From Bacillota bacterium (lineage in GTDB: Bacteria > Bacillota > Clostridia > Christensenellales > Aristaeellaceae), in NCBI GenBank assembly GCA_023415145.1, contig JAEZLW010000175.1, forward strand, positions 3,766 through 67,765: DNA of 64,000 nt. The letters run 5' to 3'. Both the position numbers and the translations under genes were made by a program. A model generated the notes under the pieces. It saw only the letters and a program-made list of their open reading frames with translations. It was not told the origin of the DNA and did no database searches. Of this stretch, positions 32,173-44,654 are shown in pieces (positions within the stretch are counted from its first letter, which is position 1; the number at the start of each line of letters is the position of its first letter).

Positions 32173-34773
32173 TTGCACGGAAAAAGAATCATCATTGCGG
32201 TGGCATGCTTGATAATGCTTGCGTTTTCCATGAGCGCATACGGGGATACTACGCCGCAGCCAGGGCCTGCGAAGGCAACCGCCCCCGTTCAGGTTGCGAA
32301 TCCCGACATATCCATGGAAGCGGAGCTTGGCTACTTTGGCGCCATCACCTACATGCGGGATATACCCTTTACCATAACGCTGGAAAACAAAGGCCCGGAT
32401 ATTGCCGGAACCATCGGCGTAGACCTATACAGGAACAACAGGTATTTTGACCGGTACGAATATCCCATCTCCCTGGCATCCGGTGCAAAAAAGCGGGTGG
32501 TTCTGCCTGTCAATCTGAAAATGAAACAGGACCATTATGTGATTGAGTTTACTAGCGGCGGTTCGGTAGTGGCTTCCGTCATCAAGACGCCTGACCGGAC
32601 CATCAAGCCGGAAGCGTCGCTTGTGGGTGTGCTTTCATCCGATCCGCAATCACTGTCTTATATGAACATCGATTCCCTCTCCCGCGTATGGGCTGACCGT
32701 TATGAGGCGTGGCAGCTTGTAACGCTGGATGAGGACCATTTTCCGCAGGCCGATTCGCTGATGAGTACCTTTTCGATGGTGGTGGTGGACGGGTTTGACT
32801 TGTCCTCCCTATCCGCCGAGCAGCAAAAGGTGCTTGACCGCTGGGTGGAAGGCGGCGGAATGGTGGTAGTGGGCGGCGGTGCCCAGGCGGCGGCGGGATA
32901 TCCCTACTTTGCCAAATATACGGGCCTTAAGGCGGGAAGCCTTGTGGAAGCTGCGGATATCACCCCGGCGCTGATTCAGTACTGCGCCCTGCTGGGCGAC
33001 AAGCCCCTCGGGCAGCCTGTTCTTTTGAATGAAGTAAATACAAAAGCGGCGCCGTTGGTGGCGGATGAGCATCCGTTGATTTTCCGGCATCAGGCGGGGA
33101 GCGGTTTTATATATACCACTACCTTTGAGCTTGGTGCAAAGCCGCTTTCCAGCTGGTCCGGCATGAGCGCCATGTGGCCTCGGGTGCTGCTCAAGAGTGC
33201 AAACAGCCAATATGCTGCCATGTACAGCAAAATTTCCAGCAAGCTGTACGGCGGGTCATATGCAACCTACCTGCTCGGGAATGTGCCCATTGAAAACGAC
33301 AGCAGCACGTTGCCTGTGATCATTCTGCTGGTCATCTATCTGATACTGGCCGGTTTGGGCAGCTATCTTATACTCAAGCGCCTGGACAAGCGGGAATGGA
33401 TGTGGCTGACTGTACCTGCTCTGGCCTTTGTTTGCATGGCGGGGCTGTACCTCATGAGTCAAAGCCTTCCTTTCAACAAGCCGGCAGTGGCCTCTTTCAC
33501 CAGCATACGTATGAATCCTAGGGGTGAGACAAGCATATCCTCCATCGCAGACCTTTCAAGCCCGGAGACCGGCGAAGCGCTGATCCAGGGCGAAAGCGGG
33601 ATGCATTTGACGCCCATTGACGAATACACTTACTTTTATGATGATCCCATGGCAACCTCTGCGCCCAAGCAGCTTTTGTACCGCATGGTCTTTGGTGACA
33701 CGCCGGCCATTGGCTACCCACAAAGCGCGCCTTGGACGCTTCGGCACGTGTCGCTTTCCGGAGAGACGCCAGACTTTGGCGAGCTGACGGGTCGGCTGTG
33801 GATGCAGGAGGACGGCTTGCACGGGCAAGTCGTCAACAATACGCCCTATACTTTCAAGGAAGGGTTGCTGATTACGAACCTGGGCTATGCCCGCGTAGGC
33901 GAATTAAAGCCGGGCGCAACCGGCCAGGTAACGCTGCTCAGGCCGAAAGACGAAGGCGGGAAAAGCACGTCCACAGCCTCTGTAAGCATCTATGAGGCGA
34001 AGATCGAGGAGGGCGTCATGATTTCCTCCAACATCACCCGCAACAGCGATATGGACCTGTATCCCATCATCCGGGCGGCCATCTATCCTGAAGAGCAGGC
34101 GGCCAAGCCCAACACGATTGATTTGTACAGACAGCTTGGCAGGGATGAACTGAACCTGCGCTCCTTCCGTGAAAGCGCCATCCATCAGGTGTTAGGCACG
34201 AACCCCACCGGGTCCACCTCCTGGGTAAGCCCCTTTCACTTTGTGGCCTTCCAGGAGGAGATTGGGCAGACCAAGCTGTATTTGAACGGCCAGGAGGTGA
34301 AAAAGCACGGGCACCAGGCGGTGGTGGATGTTCTGCTCACCTATGAGCCCGTCAGCCCGACGGGGATGGTGTATTACCCCAGCGGTACGCTGAGCGCATA
34401 CCCTGTGCAGCAGAACGCGGACGGCAGTTTTTCCGAGCCGGATCAAAAGGCAGCGGACCCGTATATGTCGTATCAGCTGACGCTCCAGCCTGTTTTCTGC
34501 TTTACCATGCCGGATACCTCAAAGTTAACCGTGAATTCCATGAGCATTCTGGCATCCTCCTATGATACGGTGCCTACGATGCAGTTGTACAACCATCAAA
34601 CAATGATGTGGGAAGAGCAGAGCACGCTGTTTGTGACATTTACCGAAAAGGAGATCCGGCCATTTATCGGGCCCCAGGGCAGGATGTATGTGCGTTTTGT
34701 GCCCGGAACAAGCTCGCGTGATTACGACAGCGTCATGGTTCCCTCCATCACGCTGGAAGGGAGGGTCAAGTAA
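32173..34773 (+). CDS. 866-aa exported/membrane protein of unknown function (operon gene 1)
   Basis: TTG start lies 7 nt after GGAAGGAGAG. Signal peptide KRIIIAVACLIMLAFSMSAYG. A CARDB-like stretch FTITLENKGPDIAGTIGVDLY. A segment MVVVDGFDLSSLSAEQQKVLDRWVEGGGMVVVGGG that resembles GATase1-like DUF4350/GldG-type domains. A central TM hairpin (VIILLVIYLILAGLGSYLIL and WLTVPALAFVCMAGLYLM), then about 420 aa C-terminal to it. Confidence 0.75.
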   Translation: MHGKRIIIAVACLIMLAFSMSAYGDTTPQPGPAKATAPVQVANPDISMEAELGYFGAITYMRDIPFTITLENKGPDIAGTIGVDLYRNNRYFDRYEYPISLASGAKKRVVLPVNLKMKQDHYVIEFTSGGSVVASVIKTPDRTIKPEASLVGVLSSDPQSLSYMNIDSLSRVWADRYEAWQLVTLDEDHFPQADSLMSTFSMVVVDGFDLSSLSAEQQKVLDRWVEGGGMVVVGGGAQAAAGYPYFAKYTGLKAGSLVEAADITPALIQYCALLGDKPLGQPVLLNEVNTKAAPLVADEHPLIFRHQAGSGFIYTTTFELGAKPLSSWSGMSAMWPRVLLKSANSQYAAMYSKISSKLYGGSYATYLLGNVPIENDSSTLPVIILLVIYLILAGLGSYLILKRLDKREWMWLTVPALAFVCMAGLYLMSQSLPFNKPAVASFTSIRMNPRGETSISSIADLSSPETGEALIQGESGMHLTPIDEYTYFYDDPMATSAPKQLLYRMVFGDTPAIGYPQSAPWTLRHVSLSGETPDFGELTGRLWMQEDGLHGQVVNNTPYTFKEGLLITNLGYARVGELKPGATGQVTLLRPKDEGGKSTSTASVSIYEAKIEEGVMISSNITRNSDMDLYPIIRAAIYPEEQAAKPNTIDLYRQLGRDELNLRSFRESAIHQVLGTNPTGSTSWVSPFHFVAFQEEIGQTKLYLNGQEVKKHGHQAVVDVLLTYEPVSPTGMVYYPSGTLSAYPVQQNADGSFSEPDQKAADPYMSYQLTLQPVFCFTMPDTSKLTVNSMSILASSYDTVPTMQLYNHQTMMWEEQSTLFVTFTEKEIRPFIGPQGRMYVRFVPGTSSRDYDSVMVPSITLEGRVK

Positions 34774-35708
34774 TGCTTGTCACCGAGAATTTGACCAGAA
34801 GATACGGAACCTTTACCGCCCTGGACAATTTAAGCCTTCAAATCGACGACGGGGAGCTGCATGGCTTTGTGGGCCCCAACGGCGCGGGCAAGACCACCAC
34901 CATGCGCATCCTGGCCACACTGCTGCCGGCCACCTCGGGGAAGGCCTATTTGGATGGGGTGGAGGTATCCCGGGAGGGGAAAAAGATACGGCGAATGGTG
35001 GGGTACATGCCGGATTTCTTCGGGGTGTACAGCGGCCTCAAAGCCTGGGAGTACCTGGACTTTTACGCCAGGTGCTATTCCATTGGCCACAGGGAGCGTG
35101 TCAGGATGGCGGATAGGCTGCTGGAGATTGTGCGCCTTTCGGACAAGAAGAATGCCTATATCGATGTTTTGTCCCGGGGCATGAAGCAGCGGCTTTGTTT
35201 GGCCCGGAGCCTGATTCATGATCCCAAGCTTCTCATTTTGGATGAGCCGGCCTCCGGCATGGACCCCAGGGCCAGGGCAGAGATGAAGGATATCCTCCGC
35301 TCGCTTCGAAATATGGGCAAGACGATACTGATTTCCTCCCATATCCTGCCGGAGCTGTCGGAAATGTGCGACTCCCTGACCATTATTGATCACGGCAAGC
35401 TGGTGTTTTCCGGCCCGGTGAAGGATCTGGCCAGGAAGATGAGCGGGCAGGCGCCGCTTCAAATACAATTGACCCAGGAGGCTACCGGTGAACAGCTTCA
35501 GGATGCTATCAATATTTTGAAACAATATCCCGGCGTTACGGGGATCATGCAGCCGGAAGAGCGCTTTTTGCGGGTGGATTTTGAAGGGGGATCCCGGGAA
35601 ACGTCCTCGCTTTTGTACATGCTGATGCAAAAAGAAACGCCGGTGGTGGATTTCCACCGGGTGCCTGTCAATCTGGAGAAGGTATTTATGGAGGTGACGC
35701 AGGAATGA
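34773..35708 (+). CDS. ABC-2-type transporter ATP-binding protein (operon gene 2)
   Basis: Walker A GPNGAGKTT, signature LSRGMKQR, Walker B LILDEPASGMD. TAATG overlap with gene 1. Confidence 0.9.
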   Translation: MLVTENLTRRYGTFTALDNLSLQIDDGELHGFVGPNGAGKTTTMRILATLLPATSGKAYLDGVEVSREGKKIRRMVGYMPDFFGVYSGLKAWEYLDFYARCYSIGHRERVRMADRLLEIVRLSDKKNAYIDVLSRGMKQRLCLARSLIHDPKLLILDEPASGMDPRARAEMKDILRSLRNMGKTILISSHILPELSEMCDSLTIIDHGKLVFSGPVKDLARKMSGQAPLQIQLTQEATGEQLQDAINILKQYPGVTGIMQPEERFLRVDFEGGSRETSSLLYMLMQKETPVVDFHRVPVNLEKVFMEVTQE

Positions 35709-44616: not shown

Positions 44617-44617
44617 A

Positions 44618-44654
44618 CAAGGCGCCCCGTCTCTTTCGAGCATGGGGCGCCTTG
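44618..44654. terminator. bidirectional terminator hairpin
   Basis: 11-bp stem CAAGGCGCCCC / GGGGCGCCTTG. Lies between the convergent gene 8 (stop 44616) and the SBP gene (stop 44681). Confidence 0.7.

Follow-up and report, generated by a model that had tools for sequence, protein, structure and literature searches.

The eight genes g1-g8 in the window (the whole 64,000-nucleotide stretch of Bacillota DNA that we analysed) very probably form a single conserved functional unit with the architecture and topology described below. The gene-neighbourhood comparison bore out the joint inheritance that an initial sequence-only reading had suggested: of 47 genome loci chosen by their g1 (identity 22-74%), 44 have g1-g7 in the same order, and all 36 metagenome loci chosen by their g8 have g1-g8 in that order. 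Order and tight junctions are kept at identities down to 22% for g1 and 34% for g8, and the genes flanking the operon are unrelated from locus to locus. Most carriers are anaerobic Clostridia; Symbiobacteriaceae, Paenibacillus and Ruminiclostridium hungatei are also among them. A literature search found no published description of the eight-gene cluster, which, as had been proposed, does not appear to be a characterised system, no family with a demonstrated function accounting for it. The operon is a new combination of known, uncharacterised kinds and not a wholly new kind of system.

Table 1. Positions of the operon genes and of the elements on either side, numbered from the first letter of the window.
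Feature	Position	Strand	Size	Description
Putative ECF-sigma-type promoter dyad	32076-32104	+		97 nt upstream of g1 start
g1	32173-34773	+	866 aa, TTG start	From ORF scan
g2	34773-35708	+	311 aa	ABC-2-type ATP-binding subunit, DrrA/GldA-like, cytoplasmic
g3	35705-36637	+	310 aa	ABC-2 family permease, ~6 TM segments (hydropathy)
g4	36634-38193	+	519 aa	Three TM helices, helical region, Gly/Gln/Ser-rich stretch
g5	38214-39206	+	330 aa	MoxR-type AAA+ ATPase, cytoplasmic
g6	39221-40087	+	288 aa	DUF58 protein with VWA-like domain, cytoplasmic
g7	40104-41903	+	599 aa	BatA-N TM hairpin, VWA, ectodomain, C-terminal TM
g8	41893-44616	+	907 aa, GTG start	BatA-N-like hairpin, two VWA, GATase1-like
GC-rich hairpin, probable terminator	44618-44654			Between operon and convergent sugar-binding-protein gene

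The arrangement first read from the DNA, eight same-strand genes with overlaps and short gaps, was confirmed by an ORF scan (32173-44616). Neighbouring frames overlap by 1 nt at g1/g2 (TAATG), by 4 nt at both g2/g3 and g3/g4 (ATGA) and by 11 nt at g7/g8, while from g4 to g7 the frames are 20, 14 and 16 nt apart, with a Shine-Dalgarno sequence in every gap; the series (-1, -4/-8, -4, ..., -11) is seen again in most homologous loci. GC content is even along the operon, and the numbers of promoter-like sites (12 versus 8.5 +/- 2.6 by chance) and terminator-like sites (18 versus 16.4 +/- 4.1) inside it are at chance level. The hairpin that follows g8 had been called a strong terminator. It is indeed very stable (-30.8 kcal/mol, z = -7.1; none of 200 shuffles equally so), but since its loop is long, the + strand carries no U-tract and it lies between convergent genes, it is a plausible rather than a textbook terminator.

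Pfam and NCBIfam matches upheld the domain products claimed for g2, g3, g5, g6 and g7. The ATPase g2 (ABC_tran, 3e-29) has Walker A and B motifs conserved in 62/62 sequences and scored 233.8 bits against TIGR01188 and 207.4 bits against TIGR03522 (GldA), both under the cut-offs (402.6 bits for GldA). Its partner g3 passed the ABC2_membrane_3 cut-off narrowly (7.1e-8, 32.4 bits), and g3 homologues match ABC2_membrane_2 and ABC2_membrane_3. Two further products had been taken for giant orphans. For g1 this proved wrong: an exhaustive profile search returned 11,015 relative clusters at E<=1e-3 (2,882 at E<=1e-30), and the N-terminal half has a GATase1-like/ThuA-like fold. In the predicted structure (AF2 pLDDT 83.5) a signal peptide or anchor is followed by a beta-sandwich (about 46-155), the alpha/beta GATase1-like/ThuA-like domain (about 180-316; Foldseek probability 1.0 to the ThuA-like 1t0b), a TM hairpin (382-400 and 410-428) and, beyond it, beta-rich and helical ectodomains. 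The cytoplasmic turn between the hairpin helices reads LKxLDKREWMW, with D405, R407, E408 and W411 invariant in 64/64 sequences. Weak Pfam matches in the g1 family were to CARDB (14/31) and also to DUF7408, ThuA, DUF4350 and IFT52_GIFT, the DUF4350 model being touched by only 1/31 members.

Because of this succession of signal peptide, beta-sandwich, GATase1-like/ThuA-like domain, hairpin and beta-domains, g1 as modelled resembles the GldG/DUF4350 proteins and would serve the ABC-2 pair as their analogue, an accessory protein; its GATase1-like/GIFT-type fold would be non-catalytic. The Flavobacterium gliding proteins GldA/GldF/GldG, and the auxiliary proteins of the "ABC-type uncharacterized transport system", share with g1-g3 the design of an ABC-2 ATPase and permease plus a large co-encoded membrane protein with a GATase1-like/GIFT-fold ectodomain. 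However, g1 was detected by neither the GldG nor the ABC_transp_aux model; unlike GldG it carries ectodomains before and after a central TM hairpin, is encoded first and stands in no gliding context.

The second half of the operon includes MoxR. The AAA+ protein g5 (AAA_3, 2.6e-61; AAA_lid_2, 4.7e-17; PDB 2r44 at 2.9e-73) retains its Walker A Lys-Thr and Walker B Glu in 47/47 sequences. Its likely direct partner is g6 (DUF58, 2.6e-37), placed in the cytoplasm because hydropathy shows no TM segment, with an intact MIDAS motif DASAS whose D/S/S residues are conserved in 47/47. In g7 (BatA, 4.1e-12; VWA_2, 3.3e-12; MIDAS DVSLS) the structures matched by the VWA domain are BatB 3ibs and 4jdu, and an ectodomain of ~340 aa leads to the C-terminal TM; this ectodomain is tentatively similar to g1, a likeness that is unstable (70% in one profile comparison, 1% in another). 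The order of domains proposed for g8, BatA-N, VWA, GATase1-like and VWA, stood in part. VWA (3.6e-21) and GATase1_like (1.7e-9) were found in Pfam, but the second VWA (409-571) is inserted into the GATase1-like domain, splitting it into 310-409 (3rht, 1.9e-11) and 600-676 (3soz, 8.9e-17; 2gk3, 8.8e-16), and BatA-N, with no direct Pfam match in g8, is linked only through HHalign of the N-terminal 340 aa to g7 (98%). The first VWA (61-188; 3ibs, 8.1e-11; 4jdu, 8.1e-10) follows the TM hairpin and precedes a beta-sandwich; the C-terminal part comprises an Ig/filamin-like domain at about 696-751, then a TM (821-842) and a cytoplasmic tail that is basic. Both g8 MIDAS motifs are conserved; over the operon as a whole, essentially no variation is seen in the four MIDAS motifs or in the Walker motifs that g2 and g5 carry.

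The other supposed orphan, g4, is better described as un-named. It matched no family in Pfam or NCBIfam, its predicted fold (AF2 pLDDT 73.6) matched nothing in the PDB, and its 93 homologues are all un-named; yet in Deinococcus aetherius a counterpart of its N-terminal membrane module is encoded by the gene just before MoxR (HHalign 94.8%). Residues 77-137 of g4 form a cytoplasmic segment with the conserved pattern AARxAD..GL.ER..TAL. A helical region that faces outward (159-370) is followed by ~110 aa of disordered sequence rich in Gly, Gln and Ser (372-480), and at the C-terminus stands a helical hairpin, which is also conserved.

By positive-inside topology g7 and g8 are predicted to hold their VWA/MIDAS domains outside the membrane, where most of the operon's protein mass should also lie; only g2, g5 and g6 are cytoplasmic. 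The idea of a MoxR/VWA unit working from the cytoplasmic face therefore fits MoxR and DUF58, neither of which has a membrane segment, but not the VWA parts of g7 and g8, whose predicted orientation agrees with that of the BatA-type protein BB0173, where the VWA domain is periplasmic by experiment (PMC5700661).

Upstream of g1, a putative -35 element GGATGA (32076-32081) and a putative -10 element CGTTCT (32099-32104) are separated by a 17-nt spacer, and in close relatives (L003-L012) this dyad is kept while the flanks diverge. Dyads of the class GGAAC/GGAAG/GGATG/TGAAC/GAAAC/CAAAC, N15-18, CGT[CT], a pattern defined after viewing the sequences, occur in 38/53 non-redundant upstream regions against a background of about 0.06-0.07 (0.057) per 300 nt, and in 8/12 of an independent set. 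The ECF-type dyad upstream of g1 in most lineages is newly observed here. The window's own -35 deviates from the GGAAC consensus, a Ruminiclostridium-like lineage has a sigma-A-type TGGTATAAT element in its place, and no cognate ECF sigma gene was found linked to the operon (3/154 sources). Judged from these motifs, the chances that the operon would be under ECF sigma control appear evenly balanced.

The explanation that we favour, tentatively and at somewhat less than even chances, is an envelope complex that stress induces and that has two ATPases, combining a GldAFG-like module (g1-g3) with a Bat/Cmd-like module (g4-g8); its function is inferred. Two older modules would have been joined in one Bacillota operon to give one multi-protein cell-envelope complex; each module is also met by itself elsewhere (at the loci described below), in keeping with this design. 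The first would follow the GldA/GldF/GldG or DUF4350 design of ABC-2 ATPase, permease and large accessory protein; the second would comprise a cytoplasmic MoxR AAA+ ring, its adaptor, the DUF58 (VWA) protein, and the three membrane proteins g4, g7 and g8. Of these, g7 and g8 would expose metal-dependent VWA/MIDAS adhesion domains, and g8 also its GATase1-like domain, on the outside of the membrane, while g4 would be a helical stalk with a long, flexible, Gly/Gln-rich tether that could extend into the wall or beyond it. Envelope stress would activate an ECF sigma factor and so switch on the operon. The two cytoplasmic ATPases would then work through short conserved cytoplasmic elements (in g1 the DKREW turn, in g4 the AARxAD segment, in g7 and g8 the tail and the basic loops of BatA-N), assembling the outward-facing scaffold or changing its conformation. 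The scaffold would bind or handle some component of the envelope, so that the system would maintain or defend the envelope rather than import nutrients. These mechanistic details are rather doubtful, and it weighs against the reading that no Bat-type system has a known route from a cytoplasmic AAA+ ring to domains outside the membrane. Consistent with an envelope role, mutants in the Rhizobium MoxR/DUF58 operon RL3499-3502 are described, as cited in PMC5700661 and PMC5118466, as having envelope and morphology defects; Leptospira bat deletions, with no phenotype, oxidative stress included, count against it (PMC3557215).

The same proteins might instead form a dedicated secretion or surface-assembly machine, in which a polymer, a lipid-linked glycan or a protein is exported through the ABC-2 unit, the outward VWA, GATase1-like and Ig-like proteins provide a conduit or platform, and MoxR/DUF58 serve as assembly chaperone. 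ABC-2 transporters are typically exporters, exporter-like ABC-2 systems are accompanied by GldG-type accessory proteins, the complex is mostly extracytoplasmic and the long g4 tether could span the wall. That the ABC-2 unit provides export is nevertheless unproven, no substrate being evident. A "novel secretion system" has been predicted for DUF4350 with MoxR and vWA (PMC5898192). Set against this, no conserved cargo gene, glycosyltransferase, sortase or polymerase lies in or beside the operon, neighbours vary between loci, the ECF-type promoter suggests a conditional stress response and not housekeeping assembly, and the MoxR module is found without the ABC-2 unit in other phyla. We consider such a machine rather unlikely.

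Such a machine was also the view of the sequence-only reading, and it matches the archaeal prediction. In archaea, arCOG01314 (DUF4350) with MoxR and vWA was predicted to form a secretion/membrane-remodelling or surface complex (Makarova, Galperin and Koonin 2015, PMC5898192). A tie of MoxR and vWA to a protein with a GldG-like ectodomain had already been predicted there. This set, also uncharacterised, has MoxR, a vWA protein, membrane proteins with Ig-like ectodomains and a protein anchored in the membrane whose extracellular domain has the GldG-like flavodoxin fold; unlike the operon here, it contains no ABC transporter, BatA-N hairpin proteins or g4-type protein.

It is improbable that two independent systems merely share a transcript here, with no physical or functional coupling. 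Such a reading draws on loci L066 and L156, where g1-g2-g3 occur without the remaining genes, and on MoxR modules lacking ABC-2 genes in Deinococcus and Ketogulonicigenium. Their clusters, on D. aetherius pDAETH-2 and on an alphaproteobacterial plasmid of Ketogulonicigenium robustum, pair MoxR with a giant protein (1181-1334 aa) whose alignment to g8 covers residues 159-752 or 196-646, and appear to fuse g7 and g8 functions in one chain. The K. robustum giant protein carries vWA and is accompanied by an annotated DUF58; the Deinococcus one has BatA-N and VWA, a DUF58 gene was not confirmed in its cluster, and a binding-protein-dependent importer lies beside it. Both lack g1 and the ABC-2 pair. 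The conservation of order and tight junctions to such low identity argues against independence, however, as do the meeting point of the two modules, where g3 and g4 keep their 4-nt overlap at many loci, and variant L065, where inserted extra genes leave the modules joined.

We regard protection of the anaerobe's envelope from oxygen or redox damage, as for the Bacteroides fragilis Bat operon, as quite improbable. Bat loci (Bacteroides, spirochaetes) and Rhizobium leguminosarum cmdA-D (RL3499-RL3502) likewise encode a MoxR-proper AAA+ and then DUF58; Bat loci also have BatA-N double-TM hairpin proteins with outward VWA/MIDAS domains, and the VWA of g7 and first VWA of g8 match solved structures of BatB and an "aerotolerance-related membrane protein". 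Carriers are mostly anaerobic, and Riemerella moxR influences oxidative and heat stress survival (PMC11834572). Yet the operon lacks the TPR proteins BatB/C, BatD and the SH3 protein BatE, adds g1, g4 and the ABC-2 pair, gives its VWA proteins large extra ectodomains (GATase1-like, Ig-like), and has a monoderm host and a putative ECF-type promoter. None of its eight proteins has a redox domain, Paenibacillus, not a strict anaerobe, also carries it, and the Leptospira deletions lacked an oxidative-stress phenotype. Finally, a sporulation-specific envelope factor in the forespore intermembrane space is highly improbable: Clostridia, Paenibacillus and Symbiobacteriaceae, groups with endospore formation, include many carriers and that space would suit outward-facing membrane proteins, but the upstream dyad is ECF-like (AAC ... 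CGT) and, on inspection, not of SigE/SigK/SigF/SigG type, and no linkage of the operon to sporulation genes was seen.

Bat-type systems and the operon here are both uncharacterised at the molecular level; where Bat-type phenotypes are present, they concern envelope or stress (PMC5700661, PMC11834572). A functional precedent for the stress-induced MoxR/VWA envelope defence that we favour is Pseudomonas aeruginosa Arc2 (PA4317-PA4323), a MoxR and VWA cluster that defends against a membrane-targeting toxin (PMC8926400). It is multi-gene, is induced by a danger or stress pathway and shares MoxR and VWA with the operon, but belongs to a diderm and is under Gac/Rsm rather than ECF sigma control. Because the operon conserves the union of ABC-2 and MoxR/DUF58/BatA-type proteins, with its mass predicted mostly extracytoplasmic and a putative stress-type (ECF sigma-like) promoter, it provides a concrete handle on this long-unexplained protein family.

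An ORF scan gave eight consecutive plus-strand genes (g1-g8), bounded on one side by a DeoR-family regulator gene that reads divergently and on the other by a sugar-binding-protein gene that converges on g8. The tight junctions described from the DNA alone were borne out: one junction is TAATG, two are ATGA overlaps and g7 and g8 overlap by 11 nt, while the three gaps (20, 14 and 16 nt) each carry a Shine-Dalgarno sequence. Promoter-like and terminator-like sites inside the block were no more frequent than in shuffled sequence. The hairpin at 44618-44654, which the sequence-only reading had called a strong terminator, is indeed highly stable (-30.8 kcal/mol, z = -7.1), but it lacks the classic intrinsic form: its GC core spans 10 bp, its loop is long and a U-tract is missing; because it is placed between convergent genes, it may act in both directions or stabilise RNA instead of terminating in the classic intrinsic way. 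The convergent gene encodes a 510-aa solute-binding protein (44681-46213, minus strand), and a 418-aa Gly/Val-rich ORF antisense to it (44642-45898, plus strand) is almost certainly no gene but a shadow ORF. GC content is even across the region (54-59%), so there is no sign that the block is a recent import, and a horizontal-transfer island was rejected.

Genes of the block (window coordinates) and partial or variant loci in other records (coordinates of each locus)
Feature	Position	Strand	Description	Source
DeoR-family regulator gene	31189-31944		divergent to g1	
g1	32173-34773	+	TTG start	ORF scan
g2	34773-35708	+	ABC-2-type ATP-binding subunit	ORF scan; Pfam/NCBIfam
g3	35705-36637	+	ABC-2 permease	ORF scan; Pfam/NCBIfam
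g4	36634-38193	+	without named family	ORF scan
g5	38214-39206	+	MoxR-proper AAA+ ATPase	ORF scan; Pfam/NCBIfam
g6	39221-40087	+	DUF58	ORF scan; Pfam/NCBIfam
g7	40104-41903	+	BatA N-terminal hairpin + VWA	ORF scan; Pfam/NCBIfam
g8	41893-44616	+	GTG start; VWA + GATase1_like	ORF scan; Pfam/NCBIfam
L066	5791-10390		g1-g2-g3 only; SfsA and RluD-type genes after	Candidatus Acetocimmeria MAG
L156	13001-17372		g1-g2-g3 only	unannotated 27-kb record, 'Klebsiella pneumoniae LZK001 plasmid unnamed3', GC 56%
L065	13976-19425		extra ABC ATPase (504 aa, N-terminal extension) and 307-aa protein	Symbiobacteriaceae MAG
L155	3008-10965		g8-aligning 1334-aa giant with BatA-N; MoxR	Deinococcus aetherius plasmid pDAETH-2
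L154	5497-12649		g8-aligning 1181-aa giant; MoxR; DUF58 annotated	Ketogulonicigenium robustum plasmid

Pfam and NCBIfam confirmed the domains previously assigned to six of the eight proteins (g2, g3 and g5-g8). The best NCBIfam models for g2 were DrrA and GldA, both under their cut-offs (233.8 against 312.45 for the DrrA subfamily; 207.4 against 402.6 bits for TIGR03522, GldA), and judged by its sequence g2 is a generic ABC-2-type NBD. g3 matched PF12698 just over the cut-off (32.4 bits; cut-off 31.6) and no GldF-specific model, while its homologues match PF12679 and PF12698. The two remaining proteins, g1 and g4, had been described as giant orphans. g1 matched nothing in Pfam or NCBIfam, including PF09822 (ABC_transp_aux) and TIGR03521 (GldG), and its sequence found nothing significant in the PDB, but it is no orphan: a word-indexed search returned 75 un-named relatives, and when 1.84 billion representatives were searched exhaustively with a profile, 11,015 clusters passed E<=1e-3, of which 2,882 also passed E<=1e-30. 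The best 150 clusters were all full-length (about 790-970 aa), and the two checked members with a source name were each a 'hypothetical protein' from Clostridiales or Bacillota. Contigs carrying the two farthest relatives (P0074 and P0075) were too short for gene context to be judged.

The AlphaFold model of g1 is confident (pLDDT 83.5, pTM 0.73) and predicts a signal/anchor helix followed by a beta-sandwich (46-155) and an alpha/beta domain (180-316); beyond these come a tight TM hairpin (380-431) and more beta-rich and helical domains. In Foldseek the alpha/beta domain resembles ThuA-like (1t0b) and glycosidase GATase1-like domains with probability 1.0; a direct reading of the sequence found no catalytic cysteine. 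Whole-chain Foldseek matches to multi-beta-sandwich proteins were dismissed, as TM scores of ~0.1 are not meaningful. Weak Pfam matches across the g1 family included CARDB (14 of 31 members), DUF7408, ThuA, DUF4350 and IFT52 GIFT. Conservation is strongest in the cytoplasmic turn of the hairpin, LKxLDKREWMW, where D405, R407, E408 and W411 are invariant in 64/64 sequences. Homology between g1 and g7 is tentative, with a probability of 70% from large alignments and 1% from smaller ones.

g4 too is un-named rather than orphan: its 93 relatives include none with a named family, and Foldseek found no PDB fold match for its model at E<=0.001. The model is all-helical, with three predicted TM helices, an outward-facing helical region and a conserved C-terminal helical hairpin. 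A conserved cytoplasmic segment, AARxAD..GL.ER..TAL, lies between TM2 and TM3, and residues 372-480 make up a predicted-disordered stretch of ~110 Gly/Gln/Ser-rich residues with GxGxG-type periodicity, a composition kept across the g4 family. Membership of DUF4175/TIGR02302, considered on account of the TM helices and the Gly/Gln-rich region, was not supported, members of the g4 alignment being without a match even at E<=1.

The other four proteins belong to recognisable families. g5 matches PF07726 (AAA_3) at 2.6e-61 and the solved Cytophaga MoxR structure (PDB 2r44) at 2.9e-73; g6, which begins 14 nt downstream, matches PF01882 (DUF58) at 2.6e-37; and g7 matches PF07584 (BatA) at 4.1e-12 as well as VWA_2. 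Over their N-terminal 340 aa g7 and g8 align at 98% probability. When a profile of g8 homologues was compared with PDB sequences, its VWA1 (61-188) resembled BatB (3ibs) and an 'aerotolerance-related membrane protein' (4jdu), while two separate segments matched GATase1-like structures: 310-409 aligned with residues 25-128 of 3rht, and 600-676 with residues 173-253 of 3soz/2gk3. Since the GATase1-like domain is thus in two pieces, VWA2 (409-571) is inserted within it, which corrects the domain order proposed from the sequence (VWA, GATase1-like, VWA); next comes a filamin-like Ig domain. Across homologues there is essentially no variation in the four DxSxS MIDAS motifs (one each in g6 and g7, two in g8) or in the Walker motifs of either ATPase.

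Topology was predicted from hydropathy and the positive-inside rule. By hydropathy g2, g5 and g6 have no membrane segment. The regions predicted to be outside the membrane are both halves of g1, the long part of g4 beyond residue 157 and, in g7 and g8, the entire VWA/GATase1-like/Ig portions. The prediction for g7 and g8 agrees with the BatA-type protein BB0173, whose VWA domain was determined by experiment to face the periplasm (PMC5700661). The MoxR/VWA unit had been placed on the cytoplasmic face; this fits MoxR and DUF58 but not the BatA-type VWA domains, which are predicted on the outer face, so that DUF58 would be the sole cytoplasmic VWA-type partner for MoxR.

Linkage of g1 and the ABC-2 pair to the MoxR/DUF58/VWA genes, which the sequence-only reading had proposed, exceeds chance when seen from either end. 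A g1-anchored scan with one genome per species gave 69 loci, 47 of which extend 9.5 kb or more beyond the g1 start; in 44 of these 47 the genes g1 to g7 are all present and collinear, with g1 identity falling from 74% to 22%. Carriers include Ruminiclostridium hungatei DSM 14427, Paenibacillus sp. J2TS4, Lutisporaceae, Candidatus Limiplasma and many Oscillospiraceae and Clostridia MAGs. In a reciprocal, g8-anchored scan of metagenome contigs (484 relatives, the best 80 inspected), all 36 loci with enough upstream DNA among those 80 showed g1 to g8 in order. Flanking genes are wholly different between loci, and the start/stop overlaps are kept, including the 4-nt g3/g4 overlap at the boundary between the two modules and the 11-nt g7/g8 overlap.

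The exceptional loci are instructive. The g1-g2-g3 trio occurs with no MoxR module at two loci (L066 and L156), and a lone g1-like gene was seen on an Armatimonadaceae contig. The Klebsiella assignment of the L156 record looks doubtful; a second g1-like fragment occupies 3-422 on its other strand. Conversely, the plasmid clusters of Deinococcus aetherius and Ketogulonicigenium robustum have neither g1 nor the ABC-2 pair. In the Deinococcus cluster, the gene immediately 5' of MoxR resembles the N-terminal module of g4 (HHalign 94.8%, E = 5e-8) and had no Pfam match, and an annotation gap at 6074-6961 probably hides a DUF58 gene; a binding-protein-dependent ABC importer lies directly upstream in the same orientation. 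At the Symbiobacteriaceae locus (L065) the extra ABC pair follows g3 and precedes a g4-like gene (524 aa), after which come MoxR and DUF58. The trio loci and the two plasmid clusters therefore indicate that the operon joins two modules that also exist separately; on this comparative evidence it is a stable fusion of [g1 + ABC-2] with [g4-like + MoxR + DUF58 + BatA-N/VWA protein(s)].

The upstream region supplied a regulatory clue missed by the earlier reading, namely a candidate stress-type promoter. The ECF consensus used has AAC in the -35 and CGT in the -10 element, with a spacer of 16-17 nt. An ECF-sigma-type -35/-10 dyad lies 5' of g1 in most lineages (window 32076-32104; loci L003-L070 and L096-L145). 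The window and its close relatives read GGATG(A/G)TATTCCCA...TCGTTCTTTAT (32076-32104), conserved while the surroundings diverge, the window's own -35, GGATGA, being off consensus; other examples are GGAAC/GGAAG...N16-17...CGTC/CGTT, TGAACA...CGCGTC, GAAAC...CGTC and, in Paenibacillus, CAAAC-N16-CGTCTATAAT. The dyad pattern, which was chosen after inspection, occurred in its first form in 35/57 non-redundant upstream regions, against a mean of 4.0 and a maximum of 9 in shuffles. A broadened form occurred in 38/53 (background 0.057 per 300 nt elsewhere in the same loci) and in 8/12 independent metagenome loci (background about 0.06 per 300 nt). The Ruminiclostridium-like group has a sigma-A-type TGGTATAAT in place of the dyad. 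Inspection upstream of g1 gave no convincing SigE, SigK, SigF or SigG consensus, and a sporulation-type promoter was rejected.

No linked ECF sigma/anti-sigma pair was found among ten small ORFs of the window, and an ECF-like gene lies nearby in only 3/154 sources. These three, from one closely related group, have an ECF-type sigma gene 2-3 kb downstream of g8 (L074, 14692-15180; L075, 15224-15676; L140, 15485-15973), which may be the cognate regulator. Taken together, the motif evidence leaves ECF control of the operon about evenly balanced. The sigma-factor search also met a YmaF-family protein gene (16713-17219, plus strand) unrelated to the operon; equally unrelated are genes in the window for an HbpS-like haem-degrading protein (2459-2962, minus strand) and an RpiB/LacAB isomerase (10200-10664, plus strand), and five further small ORFs have no Pfam family.

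Among known systems, the operon most resembles a Bat/Cmd-type module (after Bacteroides aerotolerance and the Rhizobium MoxR/DUF58 operon type) plus a GldAFG-type module, and is a full member of neither. It shares MoxR, DUF58 and BatA-N/VWA proteins with Bat operons but lacks their TPR proteins (BatB/BatC), BatD and SH3 protein BatE: no TPR, BatD or SH3 Pfam match was found in the eight proteins at E<=0.01. With GldA/GldF/GldG it shares an ABC-2 pair and an accessory protein (g1) of GldG-like fold, although only the fold class is common, and g2 and g1 do not satisfy the sequence models for GldA and GldG respectively. In the literature the nearest proposal concerns an archaeal DUF4350 + MoxR + vWA neighbourhood, predicted to encode a new complex for secretion or membrane remodelling (PMC5898192). 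This arCOG01314/DUF4350 set is marked by a membrane-anchored protein with an extracellular GldG-like flavodoxin-fold domain, encoded with MoxR and a vWA protein. The fold of g1 and its gene context agree with it, and only one of 31 g1-family members matches the DUF4350 model (1.3e-4); unlike the operon, the archaeal neighbourhood has neither an ABC transporter nor BatA-N proteins. A MoxR-vWA-beta-propeller ternary conflict system was rejected, the operon having no propeller or effector domains and the bpMoxR match of g5 being secondary (2.8e-12 against 2.6e-61 for AAA_3). A known anti-phage defence system was likewise rejected, PADLOC giving just generic ABC/AAA similarity for g2 and g5 and no match for g1, g3, g4, g6, g7 or g8. 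Literature searches, one of them too broad, found no description of the eight-gene arrangement. The central claim of the sequence-only reading, a single conserved and uncharacterised machine, holds, and is strengthened by the two-way synteny.

How such a machine might work can be outlined. The operon proteins would form one membrane complex, in which the ABC-2 pair and g1 would act as GldA/GldF are thought to with GldG: they would either export a substrate that is hydrophobic or lipid-linked, or pass force on to the g1 ectodomains. The MoxR ring and DUF58 would assemble or remodel g4, g7 and g8 via the short conserved cytoplasmic elements of these three proteins. An envelope component would be the ligand of the outward-facing VWA/MIDAS, GATase1-like and Ig-like domains, and g4 could reach into the wall as a flexible tether. 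Published precedents lean towards a role in maintaining or defending the envelope: when the Rhizobium MoxR/DUF58 operon is mutated, envelope and morphology defects are reported (cited by title in PMC5118466, summarised in PMC5700661), Pseudomonas Arc2 (a MoxR + VWA cluster) shields from a membrane-targeting toxin (PMC8926400) and Riemerella moxR influences stress survival (PMC11834572). Leptospira bat deletions gave no detectable phenotype (PMC3557215), which calls for caution against over-reading these precedents.

The operon is built from known but functionally unexplained kinds of component and is not a categorically new system. A bolder reading, which we consider unlikely, is an unrecognised class of envelope-spanning machine in monoderm bacteria: ECF-controlled, with two ATPases, in which an ABC-2 mechanotransducer beside a MoxR/DUF58 remodeller drives an outward VWA/MIDAS and GIFT-like scaffold, for example as a new route for secretion or surface assembly, or as an inducible defence against antagonists that target the membrane. 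If true, what Bat-type MoxR/VWA modules do biochemically, a question of long standing, would come to light. To our knowledge, few bacterial gene sets without a known molecular function are as widespread as MoxR/DUF58/BatA-type modules, and GldG-type ABC-2 systems are equally obscure; here both are hard-wired in a strictly conserved operon of many gut and environmental Clostridia. The culturable carriers Ruminiclostridium and Paenibacillus offer a tractable entry to the MoxR/BatA problem in Gram-positive bacteria, and the predicted topology, the invariant cytoplasmic contact motifs and the candidate stress promoter make this long-standing question testable. Finally, if the role is envelope defence, the operon would also be relevant to the survival of gut anaerobes exposed to bile, antimicrobial peptides or attack from other bacteria.
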